Shown: positions 2,146 to 64,000 of the stretch, piece after piece
Position numbering within the stretch: the stretch's first letter is position 1
Layout of the letters: every line of letters begins with the position of its first letter
Origin: Nymphon striatum
Lineage: Eukaryota
DNA: 64,000 nt
NCBI GenBank assembly: GCA_016618385.1
Contig: JABFOP010000159.1
Span: 438,555-502,554, forward strand
Direction: 5' to 3'
Program-made: the position numbers and the translations under genes
Notes under the pieces: generated by a model
The model's input: the letters and a program-made list of their open reading frames with translations, nothing else
Database searches by the model: none
What the model was told of the DNA's origin: nothing

Positions 2146-3219
2146 CTTTGTTGTCTGTGTAACACAGTCCTCCATTTGGGTCCGGATGGCCTTGTAGCCT
2201 TTCAAAAAGCAGTCGACTGCGAGGAGCACATGTCCAACCCAGCGGGTACCACCTACTCTTGTTGGCATGATGTTCTTCATTTTCAGGCTTGAGAATGCAT
2301 TTCTCAGGTTTTCTCGTTGTTTAGGCGAGTTTCTATAGAAATAATACACACCCATCAACAATACAATACAAGAGTCGTACAGCTTTATGTTTTTTATACT
2401 GTCCTTGAAAGAAAGCTCTAGTCTGTGAGCTAGACAGTGGACGATTGTGACAGATGGCTGAAGATTTTTAAAGAAAGTTGCCACACCACCTTTCTTGCCA
2501 ACCATCACACTGGCCCCATCACAACCAAATCCAACTAACTTGTCAGTGATGGTGCTTTCTGTAACTTTCACGTGAGACAAACTTTCCATGATCGAATTGA
2601 AGATTCCTTCCGCATCTGGGCTTTTAGGGGAAGTGATGCCAGCAAATTCTGTGTAGATCTTGCCACCTATCACAAATCGCACAAATACAATCTCTTGTTC
2701 TGTGTACGACGAATCGGTCGAACTGTCTGAAGTGATTGAAAAGAAGTTTGTTTTTGAAATTTGTCCAGTTAGATCTTGTTTAGCCGATTCCGCTATATAT
2801 TTGGTAAATGTCCTGCACGAGGTTTCGTTTCTGTAGGTTTTACCAAGGGTAAGGCCTTTGACCTCGTCAAGTTCACACAACCACAGATAGTCTCTGAAAG
2901 ATTTTCGGTGTTTCGCCAGTGCATGCGTATTCCTGAACAATAGTGTTAATTTCTCTGAATTAGCTTTATGTAGCTGTAGTTGCGCAATCTTTGCTGGAGC
3001 CGTTTCAGGATGTTCTTTCCTCTTGATAATTTTGGTGGCTTGTACATGCGCGGAAGACTTTTCATGAAGGCTTATGCTTTCAGCTTTATAGCTGACACAC
3101 CCGCTGATAAATGTCCTAGACTTCAAAAGTCCTTGCCTGGATAACGCATCTTTGTTGTCTGTGCAAAGCTTGCACACCATCCCTGCCGCACTATCAACCA
3201 CGGTCGTCCGATCTGCCAC
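2146..3219 (-). CDS. hAT transposase gene, first coding exon in window (RNase-H-like catalytic region)
   Basis: The 363-aa ORF contains hAT hallmarks 'FSITSDSSTD', 'GFGCDGASVMVG' and 'HCLAHRLEL'. A strong donor 'ACAAAG|gttggt' at 2146 suggests splicing rather than termination at the in-frame stop at 2128. Confidence 0.7.
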
Positions 3220-6493: not shown

Positions 6494-7566
6494 ATGTAAC
6501 CCGCCACAGCAAAATGAGTCGTAAGTCCCACAGTGACATACTGCGCTATAGCCGGTTAATGCAAAGAAAGCTTAAAACTTTCGATTTTTATGTATCTATA
6601 TAAAATAAAATCCGATATTTAATTTAATGTAAAGGTTCAGCTGATTAAATGACGCTAATTTAATTAAATTTATGTTTTCCGAGTTGATATTGTTATTATT
6701 TGCTAAAACAATGCATGAAATTAGTCAAATTACCCCATTTTCGATCATTAAATCTAAACACTTCTCCGCGGAAACCCCATGAAAATTTAACATGTACGGA
6801 CTCGTCTCGTTGTCTAGTTTCTAAATATAGAAGGCATGTTCAGGTTTTTCCCAATATAAACCAATCATCGCTCGGTACTTACAAATATGATGAACTTACA
6901 ATTATGATGGTATTTATTTTAACCTTATTGCACTAAACTCACATGGGTTTATGGCAAGCTGGAGGTCGTTTCCATCCGACTGAATGCAGTGCTTCTCTGT
7001 TAGAACTACAAGCCATGGTGGGCGAGTCCTATTTCTCACACCGCAGTCAAGAATAGGCGTTCCTCGCAGGTGCTACACTCCACCGGGATCACCCTACTCT
7101 TTATTCGAATAGTGAAGTGTGTTCTTTAGCGTGCAGAGGGTATGACTCTCCTTTACACGGGACCTCCATTTAACGTCCTATCCGAGGGACGGAGTATTTT
7201 CTCTCTAAAACCAGCCTGCATCCAGTATCAGAGAGGAGAGCACGAGAATACGCAACGTAGAGGGTGAAAAAGTGGTAGGGTACGAATGGGATTCGAACCT
7301 GGGTCTTTCAATCCCAGAACAGAGATCTTAACCACTCAGCCACCACGCCCTCTATTTAAGATCAATTATCTCAAAGTATTTTTCATTTTATCTCCGATAC
7401 CCTGAAATCTTTAAAATGTCATAATTCGGTAACCGATTGATGGATTGAAAAGCTGTTTGGATTTAATGAAAGCTGACATTCTTATCTTTCTATTGGTATT
7501 TATAACTCCATATCTCAATTTGGTGCATCACGACTCATTTTGCTGTGGTGGGTCACATATTTCATG
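6494..7566. mobile_element. MITE family B copy 1 (TIR TGTGACCCGCCACAGCAAAATGAGTCGTAAG, TA flanks), carrying a nested SINE
   Basis: 'tatgtaacccgccacagcaaaatgagtcgtaag' at the left end and 'cgactcattttgctgtggtgggtcacata' at the right end are inverted. The second copy at 26515-27476 shares termini and internal sequence but lacks the SINE. Confidence 0.6.
6912..7352 (-). mobile_element. Full-length SINE (tRNA-derived head, conserved central domain, 3' tail) inserted in MITE B
   Basis: The reverse complement begins 'gagggcgtggtggctgagtggttaagatctctgttctgggattgaaagacccaggttcgaatccc' (tRNA-like). It continues through a core 'ttagagagaaaatactccgtccctcggataggacgttaaatggag...cacttcactattcgaa' shared with six other copies in the window, then an A-rich end. 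Confidence 0.7.
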
Positions 7567-14923: not shown

Positions 14924-15528
14924 ACAAGGGTGAAAGTATTCCGGAACACACCGGATTCTCCGGTTTTTACGAGTCTTGAAGGGTCGTTTTTCCAAATTGT
15001 GTAAATCCGTTGAGATTTTTTTCAGAGAGGGGGGGAGGGGGAGAGAGAGGTATGACCCAACTCCTCAGATTTTCGATAATTAATTTCTCAAAGATACTGG
15101 ATTCAGGCTGGCTTTAGAGAGAAAATACTCCGTCCCTCTGATAGGACGTTAAATGGAGGTCCAGTGTAAAGGAGAGTCATACCCTCTGTACGTTAAAGAA
15201 CACACTTCACTATTCGAATAAAAGAGTAAAGTAATCCCGGTGAAGTGTAGCACCTGCGAGGAACACGCGGAACACCTATTCTTGACTTTTTTAAGGACCC
15301 ATACGAACCCTGAATTCCTACAAAATATGAATTACTAAGGATGTTAAGGTTATTTATAAAATGAAAACCTTAATTGCACTAACTCACAAATGGTTTTTTT
15401 GTGAGTTTAGTGCAATAAAGGTTAAAAAAAAAAATTATGAAAACACTCCCGTTTGAAGGTCCAGAGAAGATTGAAAGTTCTGAAAAAAATTTTTTCAGGT
15501 TTTTCAAAATTTTCAACTTTCACCCATG
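14924..15528. mobile_element. MITE (TIR CAAGGGTGAAAGT / ACTTTCACCCATG) related to the 11777 MITE, interrupted by a SINE
   Basis: The termini are inverted. Internal 'tccggtttttacgagtc...tgtgtaaatccgttgag' is homologous to 11795-11860. A 5'-truncated SINE sits at 15106-15432. Confidence 0.5.
15106..15432 (+). mobile_element. 5'-truncated SINE copy with poly(A) end
   Basis: Starts inside the conserved core 'ggctggctttagagagaaaatactccgtccctc'. Ends 'gtgagtttagtgcaataaaggttaaaaaaaaaaa'. Confidence 0.5.
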
Positions 15529-16772: not shown

Positions 16773-17172
16773 GCACGGGTGGCTGAGTAGTATAAGATTT
16801 TGGGCTTGATTGACTCAGGTTCGAATCTCATTCGAACCCTTAACTCATCACCATTTACGTTTTATATCTTCGTGCTTTACTCTCTGAAATCAGATGTATG
16901 GTGGTTTTAAAGAGTAAATTTTCGGACGTTAATGTAAATCACGTGTCGCACCCACTGCATGTTAAAGATCACGCTCCACTATTCGAGGAAAAAAAAGAAG
17001 TAGGGTAGATGGTGGTCTAGTCCAGGTAGATGGTGGTAATATGGAGCACCTGCAAGGTACGCAAATTATCTTGGCTGCAGCGTAAGAAACAGAATTTACT
17101 TGCCATAGCGTGAAGTTCTAACAGATAAGCACTGCTTTCAGTCAAAAGACACTGCCTCTATCCTAAAAACCT
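16773..17172 (+). mobile_element. SINE copy (tRNA-like head, core, alternative tail)
   Basis: 'gcacgggtggctgagtagtataagattttgggcttgattgactcaggttcgaatc' head, then core '...gcatgttaaagatcacgctccactattcgag', then tail 'gccatagcgtgaagttctaacagataagcactgc'. Confidence 0.55.
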
Positions 17173-23236: not shown

Positions 23237-23548
23237 TTGTTAGTTGCATCAAAAAGAAGTAAAGATGGAATGAAAATTAAAAATATTAAGTCAATTATAT
23301 CAAATATTGGAGAAAATGTAACAAATAATTTGCTATTTGCACACTCTTGGACAGGCTGTTGCACACAATATTCAATGTATGGTTATGGAAAGGGTTCCGT
23401 GTTAAAACTGTTTGATCAAAATATCAATATAGAAAAAACTCGTCAAATATTTTACAAAAGTAATGTGCCAAAAACAGAAATAGCTACAGCTGGCAACAAT
23501 ATATTTTCTGCATTGTTCAACTTGGCTGTTCCAGGAAAAAATGTCTAG
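23237..23548 (+). pseudogene. Fragment of the FEN-like/H3TH protein family (C-terminal H3TH-like part only)
   Basis: 'LLFAHSWTGCCTQYSMYGYGKGSVLKLF' aligns with 'ILSGCDSVSYPFKRGKKRTVKVAL' (59845 ORF) and 'IHTLSGCDSTSKVGPK' (56072 ORF). No upstream PIN part is present. Confidence 0.35.
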
Positions 23549-24447: not shown

Positions 24448-24820
24448 AAGTGACTGAGTAATACTGGGTGGTTAAGATCTCTAGTCTGGGTTTAAATGGT
24501 CCAGGTTCGAATCTCATTCGAATCCCCCCTCTTTCATCATTTACGTTGTGTATTATAGCGCTCTCCTCTCTGATACTGGATACAGGCTGGTTTTAGAGAG
24601 AAAATACTCCGTCCCTCGGATAGGACGTTAATTGAGGTTCCGTGTAATGGAGAGACATGCCCTCTGCACGTTAAAGAACTCACTTCACTATTCGAACAAG
24701 AGTAGGGTGGAAGGTCCTGATGAAGTGGTACACTTGCATTATATAAAGATGATTTCCTCGCCAACAAGCAATTGGGCCAGCATAGCTAGTGTAACGCCCT
24801 ACTATCCCCAACTAGAGGTC
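24448..24820 (+). mobile_element. SINE copy (head + core, alternative tail)
   Basis: 'gggtggttaagatctctagtctgggtttaaatggtccaggttcgaatc' head plus core '...ttagagagaaaatactccgtccctcggataggacgttaa...cacttcactattcgaacaagagtagggtgg'. Confidence 0.6.
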
Positions 24821-30245: not shown

Positions 30246-32389
30246 AAAACATTTCCATAATTCTATATTCCGTGTACCCACACCAACCCCACGCCAACCC
30301 ACGTGACATATCCGGTTTAAGCCAGTATGCCAAGAACAAGAAAAGGAAGTTATCAAAGTCCTATATATACCCTAAAAAAATCTTTGAATTATTATCTGAT
30401 CTCCAGACCTAAGAGTGAAAGTCACTTTCACTTTTGTTGAACTCTACTATCGAATTCTCGACGATGTAAGTAAATTCTTTTTTCTTTGGAGTATCTCTTC
30501 TGTCTTGGAAGAACTCTACTATAGGGACTCATCCCTCTTACCATATTCACAAACCCCCTTTTATGACAAACCTTGAAACCACCCATAACCCCTGCTTAGA
30601 CTCCGGATTAACTCTGGAACGGACTAAAACGTCCATAAGATCGGACCCTGAACCGAGAATCACTTTGGGTTAACCATCCCTATTAATTCACCCATTTATG
30701 TATTTATCAAGTAACCACCTATCACTATAATCATTTTGAAATTGTTGAATTATATCTTTAGTAGAATTTTATCACTTATGTATGTAACCAAATTTTCAAC
30801 TATTAAACCAATCATTAAAATGTCACACTAACTCTTTCATTCCGGGCAGTAATGAAGAAGTTCATAGATCCATATTAGACTGTGGGGCAAGAGCAAATTA
30901 ACCATTCAGAAAACAAGTTTCGTAGTCCCATCAACGGCAGAGAAAACTAACTATACTAATTGATTGTGATGAAGCTGCTGATGAGAAAAAACCTTTGTTC
31001 TCCAAATTTCGTGCACCCGTTAATGAGATAATCCGCTAATTAGTTTTTAGCATTTTAACAAGAATTCCTTGAAAAAGACTAGCCTTCTCATGCCCGTAGC
31101 CAGGATTTTTTATGGGGGGGTGCCTTTTTTCGAATATAGGGACCAGTTTCAAGATGAAAGTATATAGAGAATACGATGTGGTCGTGTTTGGTATCCTGTT
31201 TATCACATAATCAATAGATAGCTTTAAAAATTAAGTAAAATTAATTTAAAATAGATTCAGTTTGAACAAATGTATAAAGAAAATTGTAAGGTTTTATCAA
31301 AGAGCCCTCCGGCCAAATTATTATAAACATTTTCCGATCTGTCACCTCTTTAAAATGCTCGTAAATAAGTTAAATTACACTGTTGAAACCCCCCGGTCAA
31401 ACCATTAAAATGGGGACCTGGTCAAGTCAAATTCAATAAAAGCATCTGAGTAAAATGGAAAACCATTAAGAAAACTAATAGATAAGAGCCATTTGACATT
31501 TTTCAAGATTATTGCCACTTTAAATCGGTTACCCATTAAAAACATCTCTCACCGTTAAGAAGTTAATCGTTTTATAACACGTTTTTATACATGTGTTTAT
31601 ACCATTTTTAGGTCCACTGAGATCGGTAGAATAACCGCCCTATTATGTGATAAACATTATTATCTGCAATGATGACAAGGTCGAGGGACAAAATTGCAAC
31701 TGCAGCTCAACTGGGCAAGCAAGCTCTCTACAGGAAATTAAAATTGCCCAGAAACACAAAAATGAGCGAGAATCTAAAAATATTTATTTTTGAAAAATTT
31801 TTTAAAAGTGCATATTCAAGTGTAATTTTTCAAAGTGGACCTTTGGCTGTTTTGTGGGGGGGGGGGTGCCCAGGCACCCTAAACACCCCCTCTGGCCACG
31901 GGCATGCTTCTTCTTTTCAAAAAATGGTACAAGTTTTTCCTCAGGAGCCTGTAGAGTGCGCTCTCTGGTCTTTTTTTACTGTCTTTTGCCTGTCGTTTGT
32001 CGAGTCCATAATGGGACGAGAACTTGCAGCTGATCTGTGCTGAATTGCGATGCCGTTGGTATTGTGTGTAGTGCCTCTTCCTGAGAGTGTCTCCTCACCA
32101 AAGTCATTGTTATCCCACACAAGTGTTGTAAAAACACTTTCTTGGAGGCATGACGGCAACTTGGATCCACCAGTACGGATTTCCTGCTTGGCCAATGCAG
32201 TGTCATCTTCCAGTGCCAAAGTATGAGACGTTGCATGATTAAAACCATTAAGAAGACCAATCAGATGGGCCGAGCCGGTGAGATGTCGAACAGCCATGGC
32301 AAGAGAGGTGAGTTTTGGCATTGGTTTTCTTCCCTTTGAAGCTAAGTATATCACGTCTTGAGATATCGAAAGAGATATCAAAAATTTCA

Positions 32390-34687: not shown

Positions 34688-35285
34688 TTTTTTTTTTAAA
34701 ACCTTATTGCACTAAACTCGCATGGGTTTATGGCAAGCTGGAGGCCGTTTCCATCCGACTGAATGCAGTGCTTCTCTGTTAGAACTGCAAGCCATAGTGG
34801 GCGAGTCCTATTTCCCACACCGCAGTCAAGAATAGGTGTTCCTCGCAGGTGCTACACTGTTAACAGGATATGGTCGGGCGACCAGAAAATATATAGTATA
34901 GACGTGACTAACCATAAGTTTAATGGTTGCTACGACCATTAAACTTATGGTTAGTCACTAGCATATGTTTTCTGGTCGCCCGACCATATCCTGTTAACAG
35001 TGTACACTCCACCGGGATCACCATACTCTTTATTCGAATAGTGGAGTGTGTTCTTTAACGCGCAGAGGGCAAGACTCTCCTTTACACGAGACCTCTATTT
35101 AACGTCCTATCCGAGGGACAAAGTATTTTCTCTCTAAAACCAGCCTGCATCCAGCCTGCATCCAGTATCAGAGAGGAGAGTACGAGAATACACAACGTAA
35201 AGGGTGAAAAAGTGGTGGGGTTCGAATTGGATTCGAACCTGGGTCATTCAAGCCCAGAACAGAGATCTTAATTACTCAAATGATA
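34688..35285 (-). mobile_element. SINE copy carrying a nested 134-bp palindromic MITE
   Basis: Co-linear with the 6912-7352 SINE except for an insertion at 34869-35002. Confidence 0.65.
34869..35002. mobile_element. 134-bp near-perfect palindromic MITE with TACACT target duplication
   Basis: 'gttaacaggatatggtcgggcgaccagaaaa...ttttctggtcgcccgaccatatcctgttaac'. 'tacact' occurs at 34863-34868 and 35003-35008. The uninterrupted SINE copy at 7060 reads 'gctacactccacc'. Confidence 0.65.
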
Positions 35286-36172
35286 GTGATTAACGACGTT
35301 TGTGAAGCCTGAAAACAGCTCCGACAGGGCCTTATTAATTTCTGCTGGGTTATCATGGTTATTGCAAACAAAGAGGTTGAAACTCATCTTCAGATTTAGT
35401 TTTGTCAGAATCTTGAGGTATTTTACGTTTTCTCTGTGCTTGTTCGAGCTTCCTTTTGTCCGTAAATTTCTGATAACATTGTCGGTGAAAACGTGCATGA
35501 GACGGCGGCGTTGCTATCAATACATTTGCATTGGCAAGTAAATCCGTCGCAATTTTGCACTTTTCTCCGTCCGAATTTTTCAAAATCTCAGCAGAAGCCA
35601 AAGCTTTGGACCATGTTGTGTCTGTAAATTTTTTCAATACAACATCATTCACAGTCGAAAAATGAAGAAAACACTTCTTTATCTCTGGTATCGATGACGA
35701 AACGGGATCGGAGTCAGCCGACATTGTTGTTGTCAGCTGTTATTATGTAGCGAACGAAGACAATGACGTAACGAAAATTCTGCCTCGTGATTAGTTGAAT
35801 TAGACGCGCCTTCGATTTCCCGGCACATATTACCCGCGAATTCAGAGGCAAAATAATTATTTATTTTAATTAATTTCTCAAAAACGCGCAAATAAAACGA
35901 GGAGAACAAACTGTAAATATGTTTGTAATAATTGTCTGTACATGTTCATACTGGTTTGGTCTACTGCCACTGATGGGACTACGAAACTTCACAATAAAGT
36001 GACTTGCCCTACTGTCTATATCAGCTATGAAAGGGCTGACACCGATAGGTTTGCTCCGGGCGGTCAGGATGATCGAACCATAAGATGAAGGACGAACTAG
36101 GACCATAGACCATATTATTGTTATTAAGATTATTATTATTACTATTGCTTTTATAACCTTGTATGCATAGTT

Positions 36173-48162: not shown

Positions 48163-50325
48163 GAAATACTATAGAAATCCACAATTTTAATCAATTAATC
48201 GTTAGAAAAAGAAATAAACTCACGACTTAGCTCAATCATTATCACCATTCACTAATAGTATGGCAAAGAATATGGCGGATTTTAAAATCAAATTGTTCGT
48301 AACCAAATTGATCATGGGGAAAGTACTTAGCAACAGTCACGAACCCGTCACATCCCTACCAATTTTACGTCACAGTCATGTTAAAACACAAAGTTAAAAT
48401 TAATAATTAAAGAAATTCTTACCTGGATTCGAATATGAAACATTTCGATGAAGTAAACGCGCGATAGCCTAATCACTGGGCCACCGAGAATATTAATAAT
48501 AGTTAGGTCTAAAATTTCAATTCCGTGACCATTCTCTGGCTAAGATGGTTTGACAATTGATTTGACTTTTTTTTTTGACATGCCGACAGCGACCATCCAC
48601 CAGTTCCCAGCCATGTTCGATTGGTGAGAGATGGTGTTTCAAGGAGGGATTCCGCACAGAATATGCCAGGTAGTTTGCACGAAGGCAGTATTGGCGTAGG
48701 CTATCTGCATCTGGAGAGAGACGTAACTTGTTCTTCATGCTCTTCCACTTTTTGGCGCGGGCCTTATCCATGGTCTTACTCTTGTGGTCGCCGTCGATGG
48801 TATGATATCATGTTGTGTAAACTCGAAGAGATCCTCTACCACCTCTTGATCAAGATCAACGTTGTCCTTCCGCCCTTAGTTAGATGACTTCAGCCAAGAG
48901 GGCAGAATTCCACGAGTCGGGTTAAAAGAAATTTACTACGATGGAAATGCCTTTTGGGGGTTTTTGCTAGAGAGTAATGATGGGGAGGCTGCTGACAACA
49001 GGTTGGCAACATCTTGGCCCGATCGGCTCATAATGAGCCTTAAGCCCATTTTGAAAGTCGGTCTATTGGGTTCAGATTAGGGGAGTGCTTTGCACTGGCT
49101 TAGATGGTCCTAGTCGTTAAATCTGACTTGTTTCTGGGTAACTTGAACTTACTCGAGTGATGTACAGTTAACCCCTTCTCTGTATTAAGGTGCGGACATA
49201 TCGTAGCGGATCGTGCGGATCATATCGTAGCGTTCTCACATTCTGGGGATATCTTAATTCTGGGGTGACGCATAATTCTCCTAAGTACTTTAGTACCTAA
49301 GTACCTAAGTACTTAACTACTTTACATATCCTTTATATCACATAATATCTTTAAAACATTTAAAATAATTAAAAAACAACTTATGGATTCAATTTCCATT
49401 TAAACATTTTTATATGTGACCAAATGACTCAATTCGTAGCATTGGTGTATGGTATAGATTACAATAATCCACGTAAAAATAATCCCATTAATTAAGAGAT
49501 ATTTAACAGTTCTACAAGAAAATATGTTAATATGACATATATTTTGAAATTGGCAATATCAATAACAGTTATGCCTGAAACATATAATATTTAATAAATA
49601 ATTTAACAAACAATTTATCAAATTTCTACATTCATAGTAAAAAGCTTGATCATTCATTCATTCGTATGTGTAACATTTTTTGTCATTTCCCTCGCTTCCC
49701 GATTGGCTTAGAACCATTGATGCATGTTTTCGTCTGCTCTAAGCATTTTCAAAACTGATCAACAAATCAAGGTGAATTAAATACTTCTTTTATTATAATA
49801 AATATTATAAATAATATGAATGTTAGTAAGCCAGTAAAACGTGGCATATAAATAAGTGTGTGTCGGTGTTTAAAAAATTCAATTAATAAACAAAGTACTT
49901 TTAGTGCATAGTATTAGTAGCTTTCAAACCTAGCACATAGCATAGGCGAAAACCGTGATAATTCTTTCGTTTTAACTCATTCAGATTTTCGGTTTAACAT
50001 TCATTCAAAATGTTATAACAAAATGAATTCCCATTTGATATGAGATTTATAAAACTAGCCAACATTGTATTTCAGCATGCTAGTAATAAATTCGTACTCC
50101 TAATGCCAATGCATAGTATTTCGCTAGCATTATCAAGAAACAAAATGGTTGTTCTTTAACTGTGCGCGGAGGAATATTTGATTAATTTTCTTACTTTAAT
50201 CATCAGCTTTCTCTCCAAAGAGAGAGAGAAAGGAATTTATATTACACACATTCACTATTATTAAACCGTAAAAACGCCCATATTATGTGATATAAGGTAA
50301 TACATAATAATAATGATAAAAAGGA

Positions 50326-55744: not shown

Positions 55745-56190
55745 TTAGGTGAAATTTCCTTTTTATTTTAGAATTTAATTATTTGGATTTCTACACTGTT
55801 TGCCTTTACTACAACTACAAAATGTCACACATGTTATGTTCCTTTCTCTGCAAGTGCACGTTTTGATACTCATACATGATGTTGGGCATTTGCATGGAGA
55901 GGGCAGGTCATCGGGCCTACACGATACTGGCAGTAACTGGTGCTATGCCAACATCCGTTGCTTCATATCCATACTGGAGTGGATCTGGTTTGGTGACTGC
56001 TGGAGTTGGAGCTTGCTACCACATTTTACACTGCAGATATGATCGCTTTATGTGTTCTCGTAGCGTTGATGCTATGAGCAACACACAAGCTGGTTGAAGT
56101 CAAGCTCTTGTTTGGAGTTGTGGTACTGCTCCCATCGATATTCATCGAAAGTTGAACAGTCGGTCTTCTTTAATCCAGACACAAGGAACT
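55745..56190. repeat. Left arm of a large inverted duplication (partner at 56760-57195)
   Basis: 55801-56190 is the reverse complement of 56760-57150 at about 93% identity. The flanks 55745-55800 and 57151-57195 are also inverted matches. Confidence 0.7.
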
Positions 56191-57150
56191 TTTCAGCATT
56201 GTTTGTTATCTCTGGTGACAGTTCTTCTACACCAAATACTTCCAGTAGTGAGATATCCATGGATGTTCTCAGGCCAGACAGCTTTGGACCCACCTTGCTG
56301 GTACTGTCGCAACCACTGAGAGTATGAATGGCTGGGAGACACGACACCAAACTGTTGTCAAGTTGATCAACCAACAGGTAGACTGGAACAGTTTTCTTTG
56401 TTTTCCGGTTACCAAGCTTCACGTACAGCTTTTGTAGTTGCCAGGATTTGTTGAAGTAGAAGATGAGGTTAACAAAGACATCTGTGTCAGGTGAGTCAAC
56501 CAAGACTGATTGGACCCCGTGTTTCACAGCACCATCGTTAATATGGAACATGATTCTGTCGTCGGCTTCTTCTTGGTTGCTTGCGAGCTCTGCGATCTGT
56601 GTTTCAGTGCCAGCCTAACAGTTTCCTGCATTCTCTCCCCATATACTCCTCCAAAGAAGATCTCTTTGTTCGACTCGACATTCTGCAGCATCCATTTGAA
56701 GACATACTCCTGCAACCGAACTTTGTTCAACGTTGAGCTCCAGAACATATCAAGATCGACAGGGTTCCTTGTGTCTGGATTAAAGAAGACCGACTGTTCA
56801 ACTTTCGATGAATATCGATGGAAGCAGTACCACAACTCCAAACAAGAGCTGGACTTCAACCAGCTTGTGTGTTGCTCATCAACGCTACGAGAACACATAA
56901 AGCGAGCATATCTGCAGTGTAAGATGTGGTAGCAAGCCCCAACTCCTGCAGTCACCAAACCAGATCCACTCCAGTATGGATATGAAGCAACGGATATTGG
57001 CATAGTACCAGTGATACTGCCAGTATCGTGTAGGCCCGATGACCTGCCCCCTCCATGCAAATGCCCAACATCATGTATGAGTATCAAAACGTGCACTTGC
57101 AGAGAAAGGAACATAACATGTGTGACGTTTTGTGGTTTTAGTAAAGGCAA
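56072..57150 (-). pseudogene. Second member of the FEN-like/H3TH family, frameshifted, embedded in about 450-bp inverted duplication arms
   Basis: Minus-strand 'QIAELASNQEEADDRIMFHINDGAVKHGVQSVLVDSPDTDVFVNLIFYF...CLPAIHTLSGCDSTSKVGPKLSGL' parallels 'NHEEADTRIFAHIA...VIQATDTDIIFLAMYHF...ILSGCDSVSYPFKRGKK' of the 59845 ORF. There is a frame break near 56540. Confidence 0.5.
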
Positions 57151-57224
57151 AAAGTATAAAAATCCAAATAATTAAATTCTAAAATAGGAACAATATGCAA
57201 AAGGTACAACAGGTAATATGATGA

Positions 57225-57760: not shown

Positions 57761-57834
57761 GTTCCTGGACCTTCAATTAGTGGATTTTTGAAAAGTTTAG
57801 CTCTGGACATAAAGTTGCATACAAAACCACCATG

Positions 57835-58701
57835 AGCTACTCTAGTATATGAGTGTCTTGAAGCGCTATTCCAAAATGTTGGCGTGTTATAGCCATTCTT
57901 ATATCATGTACCAAAATGAAGGTTTTCACTTGAATTTCATTTGTCATTAGATTAAAAAGTCAATTGTGAGTTGGCTATTGATCGTAATCGAATTTTGATT
58001 GTAAGCAGGTTATAGAGCTTGAAGTAAGGAAGACAACAATGTGCGTCTTGAAATCAAGTTCCAAAATTTGGGGGAGTTATAGCCATTCTTAGATCATGTA
58101 CCAAAAATAATTTTTTCGTTTGAATCTAATTTGTCATTCGATTAAAATGTCGATTGTGAGTCGCCTATTGATCGTAATCGAATTTGGATTGAGGGCAACT
58201 TATAGAGCTTGAAGTAAAGAAGACAACTATGAGTGTCTTGAAGCGCTATTCCAAAATGTTGGCGTGTTATAGCCATTCTTATATCATGTACCAAAATGAA
58301 GGTTTTCACTTGAATTTCATTTGTCATTAGATTAAAAAAGTCAATTGCGAGTTGGCTATTGATCGTAATCGAATTTTGATTGTAAGCAGGTTATAGAGCT
58401 TGAAGTAAGGAAGACAACAATGTGCGTCTTGAAATCAAATTCTAAAATTTGGGGGAGTTATAGCCATTCTTAGATCATGTACCAAAAATAATTTTTTCGT
58501 TTGAATCTAATTTGTCATTCGATTAAAAAGTCGATTGTGAGTCGCCTATTGATTGTAATCGAATTTAAATTTGACACATGTTATAGAGTTTGAAGTAAGG
58601 AATACAACTATGTGCGTCTAAAAACGCTATTCTAAAATTTAGTGCGTTATAGCCATTCTTAGATCATGTACCAAAATGAAGGTTTTCGCTTAAATTTCAT
58701 T
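57835..58701. repeat. Satellite array (same 185-bp family as 18020-19768), truncated by an insertion
   Basis: Monomers 'ttatagccattcttagatcatgtaccaaaa...gtcgattgtgagtcgcctattgatcgtaatcgaatt'. The array stops at '...aaatttcatta' at 58701. Confidence 0.7.
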
Positions 58702-59385
58702 AGGCCAAACAAAAAAAAGGCTGTGTTTCCGGTAACGGTCTTGACAGACGGGAGGGTCGGTAGGTCGGTTTTATTTTTTTTTTTATTTATTATTTTTTTT
58801 TTTTATATAAAAATTATAAAAGTTAATAATATTAACTTTTATAATTTTTATATTAATTTTTTATTTAATATTTTTTATTTTATTCCCTTCACCCACCAAT
58901 TATACCATTTACTTCATTTGAAGGGCTATCTACATTTGATTCAAAGAAATACAAGTGTTTAAATCATTTAATTTAGACAAACATCATAGAGAAAAGAGAA
59001 GAATAAAAATCCAATTAACACTTAGCTTAATATATCCAGATTTTCACACCCAGAATATGTTCTTTGCATCTCTCTAATGTTTTTGGGAAAGTAATGCCCC
59101 GATTGAACTTCAATTACTGGCATGAATGTCACTTTAACTTTTCATAAATTAATAAAAAATCACCAAAATCCGGCATTTGACTATATATCCCATAATAAAG
59201 AGGTGAATGCAACAAATTACCACTCATTCTTTTTGTTATAAGCTTGGCTCTTATATGAAACAAGATTCAATGCAATTGGACCATCCATGAGGTCACCAGA
59301 GGTCAAAAGGTCACGAAAAGTGGGTTAAGCTGAAAATGTAACGCCTTTATCAAATAATTCACATTTTTACTACTTTGTAGTCTTT

Positions 59386-59690
59386 GGAGTCGCGGTGGCT
59401 GAGTGTTTAAGATCGTTATTCTGGGCCTGTAGGACCCAGGTTCGAATCTTATTCGAACCCCGCCACTTTTCACCGTTTTACGTTGTGTATTCTCGTACTT
59501 TCCTCTGATATTAGATGTAAGCTGATTTTAGAGAGAAAATACTCCGTCCCTCGGATAGAACGTTAAATGGAAGTCCCGTGTAAAGGAGAGCCATACCCTC
59601 TACACGTTAAAGAACCCACTTTGCTATTCGAACAAAAGTAGGGTGACAATTCCCGGTGAAGTGGTACACTTTCATTACATCAATTAGGAC
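59386..59690 (+). mobile_element. SINE copy nested in the composite element
   Basis: 'ggagtcgcggtggctgagtgtttaagatcgttattctgggcctgtaggacccaggttcgaatc' head plus conserved core. Confidence 0.6.
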
Positions 59691-59916
59691 CGCAATGGAA
59701 ATAAGTCTTTGGACTTTCTTGCGTCATCTTAGTTGAACATACTGTTTACCTAATAAACTCAAATCAAATCAAAGTAGTTGATGTATCCACATTTTCACAC
59801 CCAAAATATGTTCTTTGCATCCCTCTAATGTTTTTTAACTTTCTTTGCTTTCGTCTCTACTTGAAAGTGTTAGAACTGCATTTGAGAGGAAAGAGAAGGG
59901 CGAATCTGCTGCACTC

Positions 59917-61650
59917 ATGGAGGAAGTCATGAAATGCCTCGAGTCACTGGAGTCGCTCTGGGGAGATTTTGAGAGTGAATTAGGAGTAACAGCCCGTCTT
60001 TGGAGCATGTACATAGACATGATGCTTATTCTAAGGCGTTACATCCATGCTGAGAGAGCTGGGCTATGGCAACAACACTTACAAGAGGTACGGAATATGC
60101 TACCCTATACCATTGCTTCCGGTCATAGTAAGTATATGTCCTGCCTTCCGATCTACCTAAATGAAATGCAAAAGCTTCCAGAAACAGCACCAGAAGTGCA
60201 CGAGGAGTTTGCAGCTGGCAAATTCACAGTTCACCAGACTGCAGGAGACTTCAATGGTGTGTGGACAGACCTTGCAATGGCATTCATCCAACGGTTCAAC
60301 ACACTTGGTTCGAGTACATTTGGCCAACTTCAGGAAAGATACAGGGACAAACTCTTGAACATGAAACCCAGACATTGCACTGAAGTGCATTTCGTGGGCG
60401 ATCAATATGATTTTGAGTTGAAGAGTCTAAAGTCCGATGAACGCCAGAGACAGGAGTCAAATATCAACTTGCCAGAGTATGTTCCAGCGGACAGCATGAA
60501 AATCCCTGATTGGAAGACATTGCTATCAAACCCTTGTAACAGGACCAATATGCTGTCTTATCTTGCTTCACGTTGGTCTCAGGAGGCATCCTGGCCTGCT
60601 GGCTTCTGCCTGGTTCTTGGAGTGAACGCCCAGGCAACTCGTGTGACGCAGACGGAACATACCGATGTTGATGAACTGTATTGCCCTAACCACGAGGAGG
60701 CTGACACCAGAATCTTTGCTCACATTGCTAGTTGTGACGACAACAACGTATTTGTCATTCAGGCTACAGATACAGATATCATCTTCTTGGCAATGTATCA
60801 TTTCCCTCGATTGCCAAACGTTGTTGAGTTATGGGTGGAGAAGAATGATCTGTTCCTCTCCATCCATGATTTAGTGAATGAGTTGGCCAAAGCAGTTGGA
60901 AAGGACGGGTTAGCACTCACAGACACACTGCTCATCTCATACATTCTGTCCGGTTGTGATTCGGTGAGCTATCCTTTCAAACGAGGTAAGAAGAGAACAG
61001 TGAAAGTCGCACTCGAGCATGTTGACAAACACCCAACTTTGTCCAATTGCATCCGACACGAATCCGGTCCTTCTGCACATGATCAGGTGATAACTGAAGC
61101 ACGAAGCTTCTTTTGTGATCTTTACGGAAAGCCAGGGTATTTATCCCTGGATAAGCTACGCGCCCACTTGTTTGCATCTAGCAAACTAGATCTGCGCTCC
61201 CTTCCTCCAACAGAAGATGCGTTTCACTTCCATGTTCTCAGGAGCCTTTGTCAGATCTGCTTATACAAGCAAGCCTCACTCAGCAATCCAGTGCTTCTTC
61301 CACCTGAAGAGTATGGCAGAATTGTGGATGGTGACAGGTTAATTCCTGTCATGAAGAGCAAGCCATCAAAGCCTTCTGCTGCGAAGTTAAAGTACTGTAA
61401 ATGCAAGAAGAAACCGAACTGCCTGAGGAACTGCCCTTGTGCGAAAGCTGCAGTACCATGCATAATTGCATGTGCCTGCAATGGCGACAGAGAAAAATGT
61501 GGACGGCTTCTGACTGATCATTATGATGATGATGATGATAATGATGATGATGATGATGATGATGAGGAAATAGTGCTAATGACACTTTTGTACCGCACAA
61601 TTAAAAATGAAATATATGTAGTTAAATTCCTGATTTTAGTGATTTTTTAA
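59917..61650 (+). CDS. Uncharacterised protein: putative PIN/FEN-like 5'-nuclease core + H3TH-like motif + C-terminal CxC cysteine cluster + poly-Asp tail
   Basis: Open frame 59839-61650 (601 aa from TTG; first ATG at 59917, giving 577 aa). 'NHEEADTRIFAHIA', 'VIQATDTDIIFLAMYHF', 'LISYILSGCDSVSYPFKRGKKRTVKVAL', 'CKCKKKPNCLRNCPCAKAAVPCIIACACNGDREKCGR', 'DHYDDDDDNDDDDDDDEE'. There are no internal stops. Confidence 0.6.
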   Translation: MEEVMKCLESLESLWGDFESELGVTARLWSMYIDMMLILRRYIHAERAGLWQQHLQEVRNMLPYTIASGHSKYMSCLPIYLNEMQKLPETAPEVHEEFAAGKFTVHQTAGDFNGVWTDLAMAFIQRFNTLGSSTFGQLQERYRDKLLNMKPRHCTEVHFVGDQYDFELKSLKSDERQRQESNINLPEYVPADSMKIPDWKTLLSNPCNRTNMLSYLASRWSQEASWPAGFCLVLGVNAQATRVTQTEHTDVDELYCPNHEEADTRIFAHIASCDDNNVFVIQATDTDIIFLAMYHFPRLPNVVELWVEKNDLFLSIHDLVNELAKAVGKDGLALTDTLLISYILSGCDSVSYPFKRGKKRTVKVALEHVDKHPTLSNCIRHESGPSAHDQVITEARSFFCDLYGKPGYLSLDKLRAHLFASSKLDLRSLPPTEDAFHFHVLRSLCQICLYKQASLSNPVLLPPEEYGRIVDGDRLIPVMKSKPSKPSAAKLKYCKCKKKPNCLRNCPCAKAAVPCIIACACNGDREKCGRLLTDHYDDDDDNDDDDDDDEEIVLMTLLYRTIKNEIYVVKFLILVIF

Positions 61651-62413
61651 AAATTTATGTAAATCTAAAGTGACATTCATGCCAGTAATTTAAGTTCAGT
61701 CGGGGCATTACTTTCCTAAAAACATTAGAGGGATGCAAAGAACATATTCTGGGTGTGAAAATCTGGATATATTAAGCTTAAAGTAGGAAAAATGTGAAAT
61801 GTTTGATAAAGGCGTTAAATTTTCAGCTTGACTCACTTTCCGTAACCTTTTGACCTCTGTTGACCTCATGGATGGTCCAATCAAATTGAATCTTGTTTCA
61901 TATAAAAGCCAAGCTTATAACAAAAAGAATGAGTGGTCATTTGTTGCATTCACCCTTTTATTATGGGATATATGGTCAATTGAATTTCCCCTACCCCTCA
62001 ATTTCTTGTTTTTTACAATTGACGCTCCATGTTAAAAAAACGTCCCTACAGAATTCGTGCAATTCAAACCACCTTGCTAACGTCACTTTTCTGATGGCTA
62101 ACACCCCCACAGACATGATCTAGGGGTCAAAAATTTTATATTAGGGGTGTCACATAAAAATCAAATTTTGAGGTCTCGGATCCCAGACTATCAATACTAA
62201 AGAGAATCCGTTGACACGACATATTTGTTGCACTGATCTATATAGTAGTCTGCACTGTTCAGGGTGCCATGATAGATTTACCATCAGAATTATCACTTGT
62301 CAGTCAACGGCACTGGTCAACGGGCTATCTGATGAGTACGAGAACCATATTATATATATATTTATCGCACAACCTTGACTTTATTGCATGCATTTGGAGT
62401 TCTTATATTTCCT

Positions 62414-62488
62414 GTATAAGGACACGTCCCTATATATATCGTATAAGGACACGTCCCTATATATATCGTATAAGGACACGTCCCTATA
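62414..62488. repeat. 26-bp tandem repeat x3 (gtataaggacacgtccctatatatatc)
   Basis: Read directly in the sequence. Located inside the composite element. Confidence 0.7.
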
Positions 62489-63394
62489 TTGGTGTTGATT
62501 ACAGACACAGGGAGTCTGAGATTGTGAATGTTGCCTACCACAAATTTATTGTTCCTTTGTTATATTCCAAACACGCCGTTTACTTAACAAGTCAGTTCTC
62601 GAGTTTCAATTATGTTCAGTTGCGTCATTTCTATTTTGTTGAATTGAAGAAATCGGATATTTTCTAACCGACTTCTCGGAATTCATTGAAGTGTTTAAAC
62701 TTTTCCCCCTCCCGTTCTCACCCTCTCACCCTCTCAGCAATTTATATTCTTTTTTTTAGCTTGACTGGCACAAAACGAATCAATTTTAAAATCTATTTTA
62801 ATTAATAAATTCATTTTCAAAGCTACCTGCCGGTTGTGCAATAAACAGAATATAAAATTCGTGCCCGTTGCCACGAGATATATGGAACTCGTCAACTTAG
62901 TTTTAATTTCAGCTCGCCAAGGCTCGCCAAGGCTCGCTGAAATAAAAACAAAGTTGACTCGTTCCATATATTTCGTAAGCAACGATCACTCATTCTATAT
63001 CCTCTATTTATATATTTTTTATATTTACGAGAACCATATACCCATCACTGAGCGGAAGTTTAAAATCGAAATCGAAAGTGCAGTTAAACTGTACTTTCGA
63101 TTTCGATTTTAAACTTCCGGTTAAACTGTACTTTCGATTTCGGTTTTAAACTTCCGCTCAACTACGCACGTGCGCACAAGGAGGTGTAATGACACGAAAG
63201 GAATGGCCGTAGTTTGTAACAGATTTTTACTATTTAACGCATTTTAAGAGGTAGTTTTGTGACGTTTTTTCTTTACCATTTCATGCTTTTTACTATGTTT
63301 TTCCCGAATCATCATAAAAACTTTTCAGTCGGCGGTAAAATAACACGGTCGGTCGGGTTACCGGAAACACAACATTTTTTTTTTTTGGCCTTAG

Positions 63395-63700
63395 TAATTC
63401 GATTAAAAAGTCGACTGTGAATCGCCTATTGATCGTAATCCAATTTAAATTTGACGTATGCTATAAATCTTGAAGTAAGGAAGACAACTATATGTGTGTC
63501 TTGAAATCAAATTCCAAAATTTGGGTGAGTTATAGCCATTCTTAGATCATGTACCAAAAATAATTTTTTCGTTTGAATCTAATTTGTCATTCGATTAAAA
63601 AGTCGATTGTGAGTCGCCTACTGATCGTAATCGTATTTGGATTGAGGGCAAGTTATAGAGCTTGAAGTAAGGAAGACAACATGTGTGTCTTTGTAGCTCC
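63395..63700. repeat. Satellite array resuming after the insertion (about 1.7 monomers)
   Basis: 'taattcgattaaaaagtcgactgtgaatcgcctattgatcgtaatccaattt...' continues the monomer interrupted at 58701. Confidence 0.7.
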
Positions 63701-64000
63701 CCAGGTTAAAAAGATATGGGGAACCAACAGTATTGGAGAAATTGAGCCCTCAATATGAATTTTTGTGGCCATATTTAATAAGACTAATTAGGCCCTTTCC
63801 CGAGGTCAGAATTTTGGTGGATTTTATGTATTTACAATCCTGAGAACCTATAGAATCAGAATCAGCAAACAGAAATTCTTTTTCAATTTTTTCTAGGTCA
63901 AATATTAAATTGACTGGACTACTTCTCCGATTGCAAATTTATGACAAAATTTGAAATTGGCGGCCATTTTGGACGTTTTAAACCTCTAAATAATGATTTT

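Follow-up and report, generated by a model that had tools for sequence, protein, structure and literature searches.

A probable non-autonomous AcademX transposon derivative with a remnant of a predicted FEN-like nuclease in the sea spider Nymphon striatum

We examined a 64,000-nucleotide stretch of the genome of the sea spider Nymphon striatum (GenBank assembly GCA_016618385.1, contig JABFOP010000159.1, positions 438,555 to 502,554, forward strand), hereafter the window, whose own coordinates are used throughout. Near its end lies an open reading frame (ORF) of 601 codons on the plus strand (59845–61650), which starts with TTG, has its first ATG at 59917 and stops at 61648–61650. We describe here the features of this ORF, which we take to be a doubly deleted remnant of an AcademX transposon polyprotein, and of the nested repeats around it. 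An earlier note on this DNA had read the same protein, from ATG 59917 on, as a PIN-type nuclease with a Cys-rich cluster and a (GAT)n-encoded poly-Asp tail, and the motifs it quoted, the ATG and the tail are all present in the ORF. The best database matches are N. striatum proteins, 96–98% identical and spread over dozens of gene models, while a Pfam scan of the ORF gave no match.

All parts of the ORF lie on the plus strand. It opens with a remnant of the Academ DDE transposase (59857–60279), the helical part that immediately precedes the catalytic Glu, which carries the motifs ARLWSMYIDMM..HAERAGLW..HL..MLPY..KF.V..FNGVWTD and matches positions 780–924 of a 1588-position full-length profile with 115 bits. 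A deletion junction, TDLA/MAF (60265–60285), leads into a FEN/XPG-like predicted 5'-nuclease domain (60280–61395), composed of a PIN core, an H3TH motif and C-terminal helices, its first strand being gone. Within this domain we find VGDQYD (60394–60411), the second acidic motif with the Asp after strand 2; NHEEADTRIFAHIA (60688–60729), a Glu/Glu/Asp cluster at the N-terminus of a helix; VIQATDTDIIFLAMYHF (60754–60804), a DxD cluster after a strand; and LSGCDSVSYPFKRGKKRTVKVAL (LSGCDSVSYPFKRGKK...; 60946–61014), the H3TH-type helix-loop-helix with the last Asp of the metal site. The Cys-rich cluster CKCKKKPNCLRNCPCAKAAVPCIIACACNGDREKC (61396–61500), which reads CKCKKKPNCLRNCPCAKAAVPCIIACAC...C and corresponds to the AcademX 'Cys8 zinc finger' (tesmin/TSO1 CXC-like), and the acidic poly-Asp tail (61525–61569) follow; acidic tails are found in homologs too.

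The family to which the ORF belongs is large. A profile of 21 sequences, run against a library of 1.84 billion proteins, finds 30,378 cluster representatives, of which 2,088 reach E <= 1e-30; it spans the C-terminal 900 residues (transposase end, nuclease and Cys cluster) of proteins that measure about 1500–1690 residues at full length. In an alignment of 21 full-length members at 20–37% identity (A4), the N-terminal half runs from Cys/His motifs through an invariant DNxD..EETLDG..H.T (consensus DNxDxxEETLDG) to FDQALY and RxGxFH, the middle consists of a long helical stretch (FIRA.R.GNW.LHL..MLP.FFAYD..NYAR) followed by DQAxE, and the nuclease presents, in order, IIDGMA, VFD.Y..SIK..ER.RR, HEEADTR, S.DTD and H..TGCD.TS.F.G.GK, before eight nearly invariant Cys close the protein. 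The full-length relatives are thus built of four parts: Cys/His motifs at the N-terminus, a DDE transposase into which a long helical domain is inserted, a nuclease of predicted FEN/XPG/Xrn fold and a CXC-like Cys8 cluster.

This is the architecture by which AcademX is defined, namely a transposase, a nuclease of the XPG type and a presumed Cys8 zinc finger, all within a single large protein (Kojima 2020, PMC7165386); the group, its nuclease included, was assigned by Kapitonov & Jurka 2010, whom Kojima 2020 (PMC7165386) cites for it. AcademX elements produce target duplications of 3–4 bp and occur in seven animal phyla, Arthropoda among them (Kojima 2020, PMC7165386). The published transposase alignment (Data S3, PMC7165386) shares DNxD..EETLDG, FDQALY, RLGGFH, FIRAER.G.W and DQA.EQ with our full-length homologs. 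Furthermore, the ORF has only the C-terminal part of this domain left, and its residues 47–145 align in BLASTP with eight Academ fragments from the literature, including Academ-3_SP, Academ-3_BF and Academ-1_CGi (34–45% identity, 51–90 bits, E values between 1e-20 and 4e-7 for a database size set at 1e8). Because homology of the transposase remnant, domain order (the nuclease follows the transposase within one protein), the C-terminal Cys8 cluster and 3-bp duplications (AAG at the inner element described below, in one copy; TAA at a full-length locus; TTA at the outer unit) all agree, the protein belongs to AcademX. Hence the mobile-element enzyme suspected in the earlier note is the XPG-nuclease and Cys8-finger part of the AcademX polyprotein, of which it had overlooked the transposase remnant making up the first 145 residues. 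Publications of 2010 and 2020 had already dealt with elements of this kind; the family is not new, and the present one is an ordinary further member.

Compared with the full-length profile, the ORF covers positions 780–924 and 1168–1585, and positions 1–779 and 925–1167 are gone. The lost N-terminal half (about 780 profile positions) held the first two catalytic Asp of the DDE triad. The second loss, 237 residues in frame relative to undeleted relatives of the same species (P0023, P0014 and P0009), joins ...FNGVWTDLA to MAFIQRF... and takes with it both the DDE Glu (DLALEQ) and the β1 Asp of the nuclease (vvDAMAF). The window copy, which the earlier note had called intact without noticing the internal deletion, hence lacks D, D and E of the triad as well as the first nuclease Asp; it is therefore a non-autonomous deletion derivative, unable to transpose itself, and, to judge from its residues, probably catalytically dead as a nuclease. 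An identical junction, TDLAMAFIQ, occurs in 12 cluster representatives, so one deletion derivative has been amplified. Altogether, the ORF very probably derives by deletion from an AcademX DNA transposon of N. striatum and is non-autonomous.

What the nuclease part looks like when complete can be judged from an intact homolog, P0032 (1010 residues), which we modelled whole and as an isolated domain. Residues 560–950 of the whole model mostly have a predicted local distance difference test score (pLDDT) above 90, and the domain alone has a mean pLDDT of 92.3 and a predicted template-modelling score (pTM) of 0.92. It shows a PIN-like core followed by an H3TH, with modelled helices at 232–246 and 258–268. 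Foldseek against the PDB returned enzymes of the FEN superfamily only (Xrn1, Rat1, T5 flap endonuclease, Exo1, a plastid exonuclease and Rad2/XPG; probability 0.94–1.0). Ranked by structural match score, the matches are Xrn1 (14.8), human XRN1 (13.9), Exo1 (13.6), Rat1 (13.1), T5 exonuclease (12.9), mycobacterial FEN (12.3), T4 RNase H (10.9), FEN-1 (10.6), ExoIX (10.4), XPG (10.3) and GEN1 (10.0), the first match outside the FEN enzymes being a NYN/PIN-type protein at 8.5; sequence identity to the structural matches is 11–14%.

The residues expected at the metal site are conserved. In a second alignment (A3), numbered along the domain segment of P0032, D53, E159/E160, D162, D187, D189 and D249 are invariant, with D10 nearly so; in A4, D1194, D1236, E1341, D1343, D1372, D1374 and D1436 are invariant and E1340 nearly so. 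VGDQYD of the ORF contains the position of D53 (D1236 in A4), the Glu/Glu/Asp cluster those of H158, E159, E160, A161 and D162, and the DxD cluster those of D187, T188 and D189, all invariant in A3, as are G247, D249, S252, G258 and K259 in the H3TH region. Seven carboxylates of the superfamily are thus kept, and in the model they lie where strands end and helices begin; the window copy is without that of β1. As the motifs are invariant or nearly so among homologs of only 20–50% identity, their conservation goes far beyond chance. The acidic residues aligned by eye in the earlier note (HEEADTR, TDTD, SGCD) are among the invariant or nearly invariant ones, to which the β1 Asp and the Asp of GDRYD, unlisted there, have to be added; conservation among distant homologs and structural comparison alike bear out its PIN/FEN and H3TH core. 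The nuclease part is, on its modelled structure, a predicted two-metal-ion 5' nuclease of FEN/XPG/Xrn fold.

The ORF sits within an inner element of 2.0 kb (59775–61780; 5'-TAGTTGATG...AAGCTTA-3'), bounded by AAG at 59772–59774 and 61781–61783. Its left terminal inverted repeat (TIR; 59775–59840) begins 5'-TAGTTGATGTATCCACAT... and has 5'-TAG and TCCAGAT in common with the ends of two full-length AcademX loci; its right TIR (61715–61780) ends ...ATCTGGATATATTAAGCTTA-3' (reverse complement TAAGCTTAATATATCCAGAT...), and the similarity of the right repeat runs inward to 61614, overlapping the end of the ORF. The two full-length loci, recovered from ENA ERZ25069866 (L001, 3028–10073; L002, 6104–13312), measure about 7.0–7.2 kb, are about 87% identical in the coding part and about 73% near the ends, and both have TAGT...ACTA termini with the common TCCAGAT; L002 is flanked by a TAA duplication. 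For L001, a candidate TIR at 3129 / 9983 was dropped and the ends were set instead by comparing the two loci.

The inner element is in turn contained in an outer repeated unit of 4,688 bp (58703–63390) with 34-bp TIRs (58703–58736 and 63357–63390). Its ends read GGCCAAAC...TGTGTTTCCGGTAAC, a TTA duplication flanks it (58700–58702 and 63391–63393), and it splits a 190-bp tandem satellite (57764–58700 and 63394–63706). When the flanks are joined with one TTA, a gap-free satellite unit results, and other duplication lengths align worse. Ends of the form TAGGCC...GGCCTA and a 4-bp TTAG duplication were rejected, since they gave asymmetric ends or a worse alignment of the empty site. Copy boundaries at other N. 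striatum loci were inferred from the tails of gene models, which match 58704–58760, 62263–62664 and 62849–63390; the whole 4.7-kb unit is therefore repeated. Between the left end of the unit and the ORF lies an additional A+B repeat block (59024–59376), inverted block by block relative to 61614–61982: each of the two blocks is inverted, their order is kept and a 15-nt motif is common to the block junctions. A single TIR of about 370 bp was rejected here, the blocks keeping their order instead of mirroring it. This block explains the long inverted repeat of the earlier note.

Some further repeats adjoin these structures. Upstream of the ORF, at 59391–59683, lies a dispersed repeat of about 290 bp that is unrelated to Academ and has other copies at 7076–7347 (minus), 24464–24747, 34999–35278 (minus), 15093–15247 and 16778–16919; it adjoins the ORF in the N. 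striatum gene models P0011 and P0018 as well. A tRNA search of this repeat found none and so gave no evidence of a tRNA-derived short interspersed element. The right part of the outer unit holds three copies of a 27-bp tandem repeat (62399–62489) and an almost perfect palindrome, about 110 bp long (63049–63160), which the tail of P0003 contains as well.

Several observations weigh against the assignment. At the sequence level, the Pfam models XPG_N, XPG_I, 5_3_exonuc_N and 5_3_exonuc match at E <= 10 no member scanned, be it the ORF, 16 full or partial homologs or 18 domain sequences, and the scans yielded a lone PIN_4 match at E 0.11; phmmer and a profile of the domain, run against the PDB chain sequences, returned nothing relevant. 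The nuclease assignment therefore rests on the predicted structure and on motif conservation. At the level of the element, the boundaries and the AAG duplication of the inner element come from a single copy and from 3 bp only, L001 has no perfect duplication (ATT/TAT), and the GGCC...GGCC termini of the outer unit are unlike those of Academ. The sequence-level negatives and the low identity to the structural matches would suit a resemblance to PIN/FEN that is fortuitous, in a protein of other fold or function. We consider this hardly credible, however, in view of the high-confidence model of the domain and of seven carboxylates that are invariant or nearly so at just the strand ends and helix starts where they are expected; moreover, the nuclease had been assigned independently by Kapitonov & Jurka, as cited in Kojima 2020 (PMC7165386).

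The ends of the outer unit bear on how the ORF spread. Its spread is recent and may have gone in trans through the TAG...-type terminal repeats that it has itself, though transport as cargo within the 4.7-kb TIR unit is likelier; part of this account we see, and the rest we infer. The amplified unit could be another TIR transposon altogether, possibly PIF/Harbinger-like, that holds a captured Academ fragment as passive cargo, and we judge this to be only somewhat short of an even chance. The outer unit has its own 34-bp TIRs starting with GGCC and its own TTA duplication, a combination (GGCC... ends with TTA/TAA) typically found in PIF/Harbinger elements, mPing among them; the similarity of other copies reaches both of its ends, and B-type flanks recur beside the ORF in other gene models. 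Duplications of 3 bp are made by AcademX too, however, as TAA in L002 and cases in Kojima 2020 (PMC7165386) illustrate, the linkage of ends to ORF in other copies is read from gene-model tails only, and no Harbinger-type transposase or Myb-like gene turned up, though none was searched for. If the ORF is indeed cargo, its copy number says nothing about the activity of Academ; what would change is what moves the ORF, not what the ORF is.

It is also conceivable, though improbable, that the truncated ORF has been kept open for a useful protein, such as a DNA-binding protein without nuclease activity that regulates Academ transposition, or a host factor that arose by domestication. Both deletions leave the 601-codon frame open, the deletion form is the most abundant among the N. 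striatum matches, and the putative DNA-binding parts, H3TH and Cys8, are intact. Yet copies that are 96–98% identical should have open frames simply because they are young, many of the related copies show truncations or fusions at varying points, and the TIRs and duplications are those of any transposon copy. By analogy, a catalytically dead protein with H3TH and Cys8 might act in trans on Academ ends as a repressor or competitor, to which we attach a similarly slight probability; the model for it is KP, a repressor of P elements. If true, it would account for the predominance of precisely this deletion form in the sea-spider genome.

The window is strewn with Academ debris from several families. 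A second copy (55764–57186) is a fold-back palindromic fragment with arms 96–98% complementary, which comprises the C-terminal half of the nuclease and the Cys cluster, the latter encoded on both strands. It belongs to a different, more divergent Academ family (about 24% identical), scores 113 bits with the profile of full-length homologs at 56105–56605 (minus) and has NQEEADDRIMFHI, LVDSPDTDVFVNLIFYF and IHTLSGCDSTSKVGPK in one frame of the minus strand at about 56072–56600. The third copy is a short decayed H3TH fragment (23261–23428, plus; 30 bits), in which TGCC replaces TGCD. The additional loci proposed in the earlier note are thus real, both being weaker relatives; its statement that the copies always stand next to long inverted repeats holds only in part, the repeats being the terminal repeats of the element at 59775–61780 together with a nested structure, and copy 2 is itself a fold-back rearrangement. 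Three further fragments had escaped it: a piece of Academ transposase around the first catalytic Asp (31965–32375, minus; VWDNNDFGEETLSGRGTTHNTNG / VWDNNDFGEETLSG), and fragments at 35389–35688 (minus) and 48568–48783 (minus), which derive from the Cys/His region at the N-terminus and from a helical C-terminal piece.

Transposon ORFs of this kind have also entered the public annotation. The N. striatum gene models P0002, P0008, P0010, P0012, P0014 and P0069 contain the ORF under the names of host genes (among them solute carrier 23 member 2, CCR4-NOT subunit 6, sorting nexin-12, protein O-mannose kinase, rRNA processing protein 36 and greatwall kinase), and they are likely annotation chimeras. 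Many 'hypothetical' or chimeric N. striatum gene models are explained in this way as transposon contamination. The family also exposes a gap in Pfam, no model of which detects the FEN-fold nuclease domain of so many cluster representatives.

Why a cut-and-paste DDE transposase should carry a FEN/XPG-like nuclease is a general question of AcademX that has been posed before, and a defective copy cannot answer it. The nuclease (with 3–4 bp duplications) and a helicase (with 9–10 bp duplications) are mutually exclusive between the two Academ lineages, and a link to repair was offered by Kojima as speculation (Kojima 2020, PMC7165386). In intact elements, the DDE domain would be expected to cut and join the 3' ends, and the fused FEN-like domain might handle the other strand or a branched intermediate, by cleavage of the 5' strand or by processing of flaps or hairpins at the transposon ends. 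Argued by analogy, such a second-strand or branched-intermediate role seems the most plausible one. The components at hand for this mechanism are a fold that is predicted, conserved metal-ligand residues, the fusion to a DDE transposase, and TIRs with 3-bp duplications.

Among known systems, AcademX is the closest: besides the one large protein, the transposase motifs and the 3-bp duplications, the inner element has the pyrimidine 5' end and purine 3' end of the group (TAG...TTA), as do L001 and L002 but not the outer unit, and long TIRs and a host among the arthropods are in keeping with it. The window copy departs from it by its double deletion, with neither the DDE triad nor the first nuclease Asp, and by its nesting in a larger GGCC-ended unit. 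With AcademH the family shares a homologous DDE transposase domain, but AcademH encodes a RecQ-like helicase in a gene of its own, lacks both nuclease and Cys8 and has duplications of 9–10 bp. The nuclease domain resembles FEN, XPG, Exo1, Xrn1 and T5-type enzymes in its PIN-like α/β core followed by an H3TH and in its seven carboxylates in canonical order; it differs from them in its low identity, in its position behind a transposase and ahead of Cys8, in being invisible to the Pfam XPG and exonuclease models, in a Cys before the H3TH Asp (SGCD) and in the distinctive HEEADTR motif, its activity being a predicted one.

The Cys cluster, in turn, has a CxC...CxC...C spacing similar to that of tesmin/TSO1 CXC domains (PF03638), as the earlier note had seen. 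At the cutoff of 23.5 bits the likeness holds in one homolog (P0105, 26.5 bits), whereas P0108 (17.5) and P0027 (15.5) stay below, as do most homologs, and the window ORF has no PF03638 match. Tesmin/CPP proteins carry paired CXC modules; here one cluster stands at the extreme C-terminus. Finally, the division of labor considered above for intact elements would resemble that of TnsA and TnsB in Tn7, where a DDE enzyme is likewise paired with a second, unrelated nuclease, in our case possibly cutting the other strand, and it would fit the contrast between AcademX, with nuclease and 3–4 bp duplications, and AcademH, with helicase and 9–10 bp. The likeness to Tn7 is one of function only: TnsA is a separate, bacterial protein with a restriction-enzyme fold, whereas in AcademX the second nuclease is of predicted FEN fold and is fused to the transposase itself.

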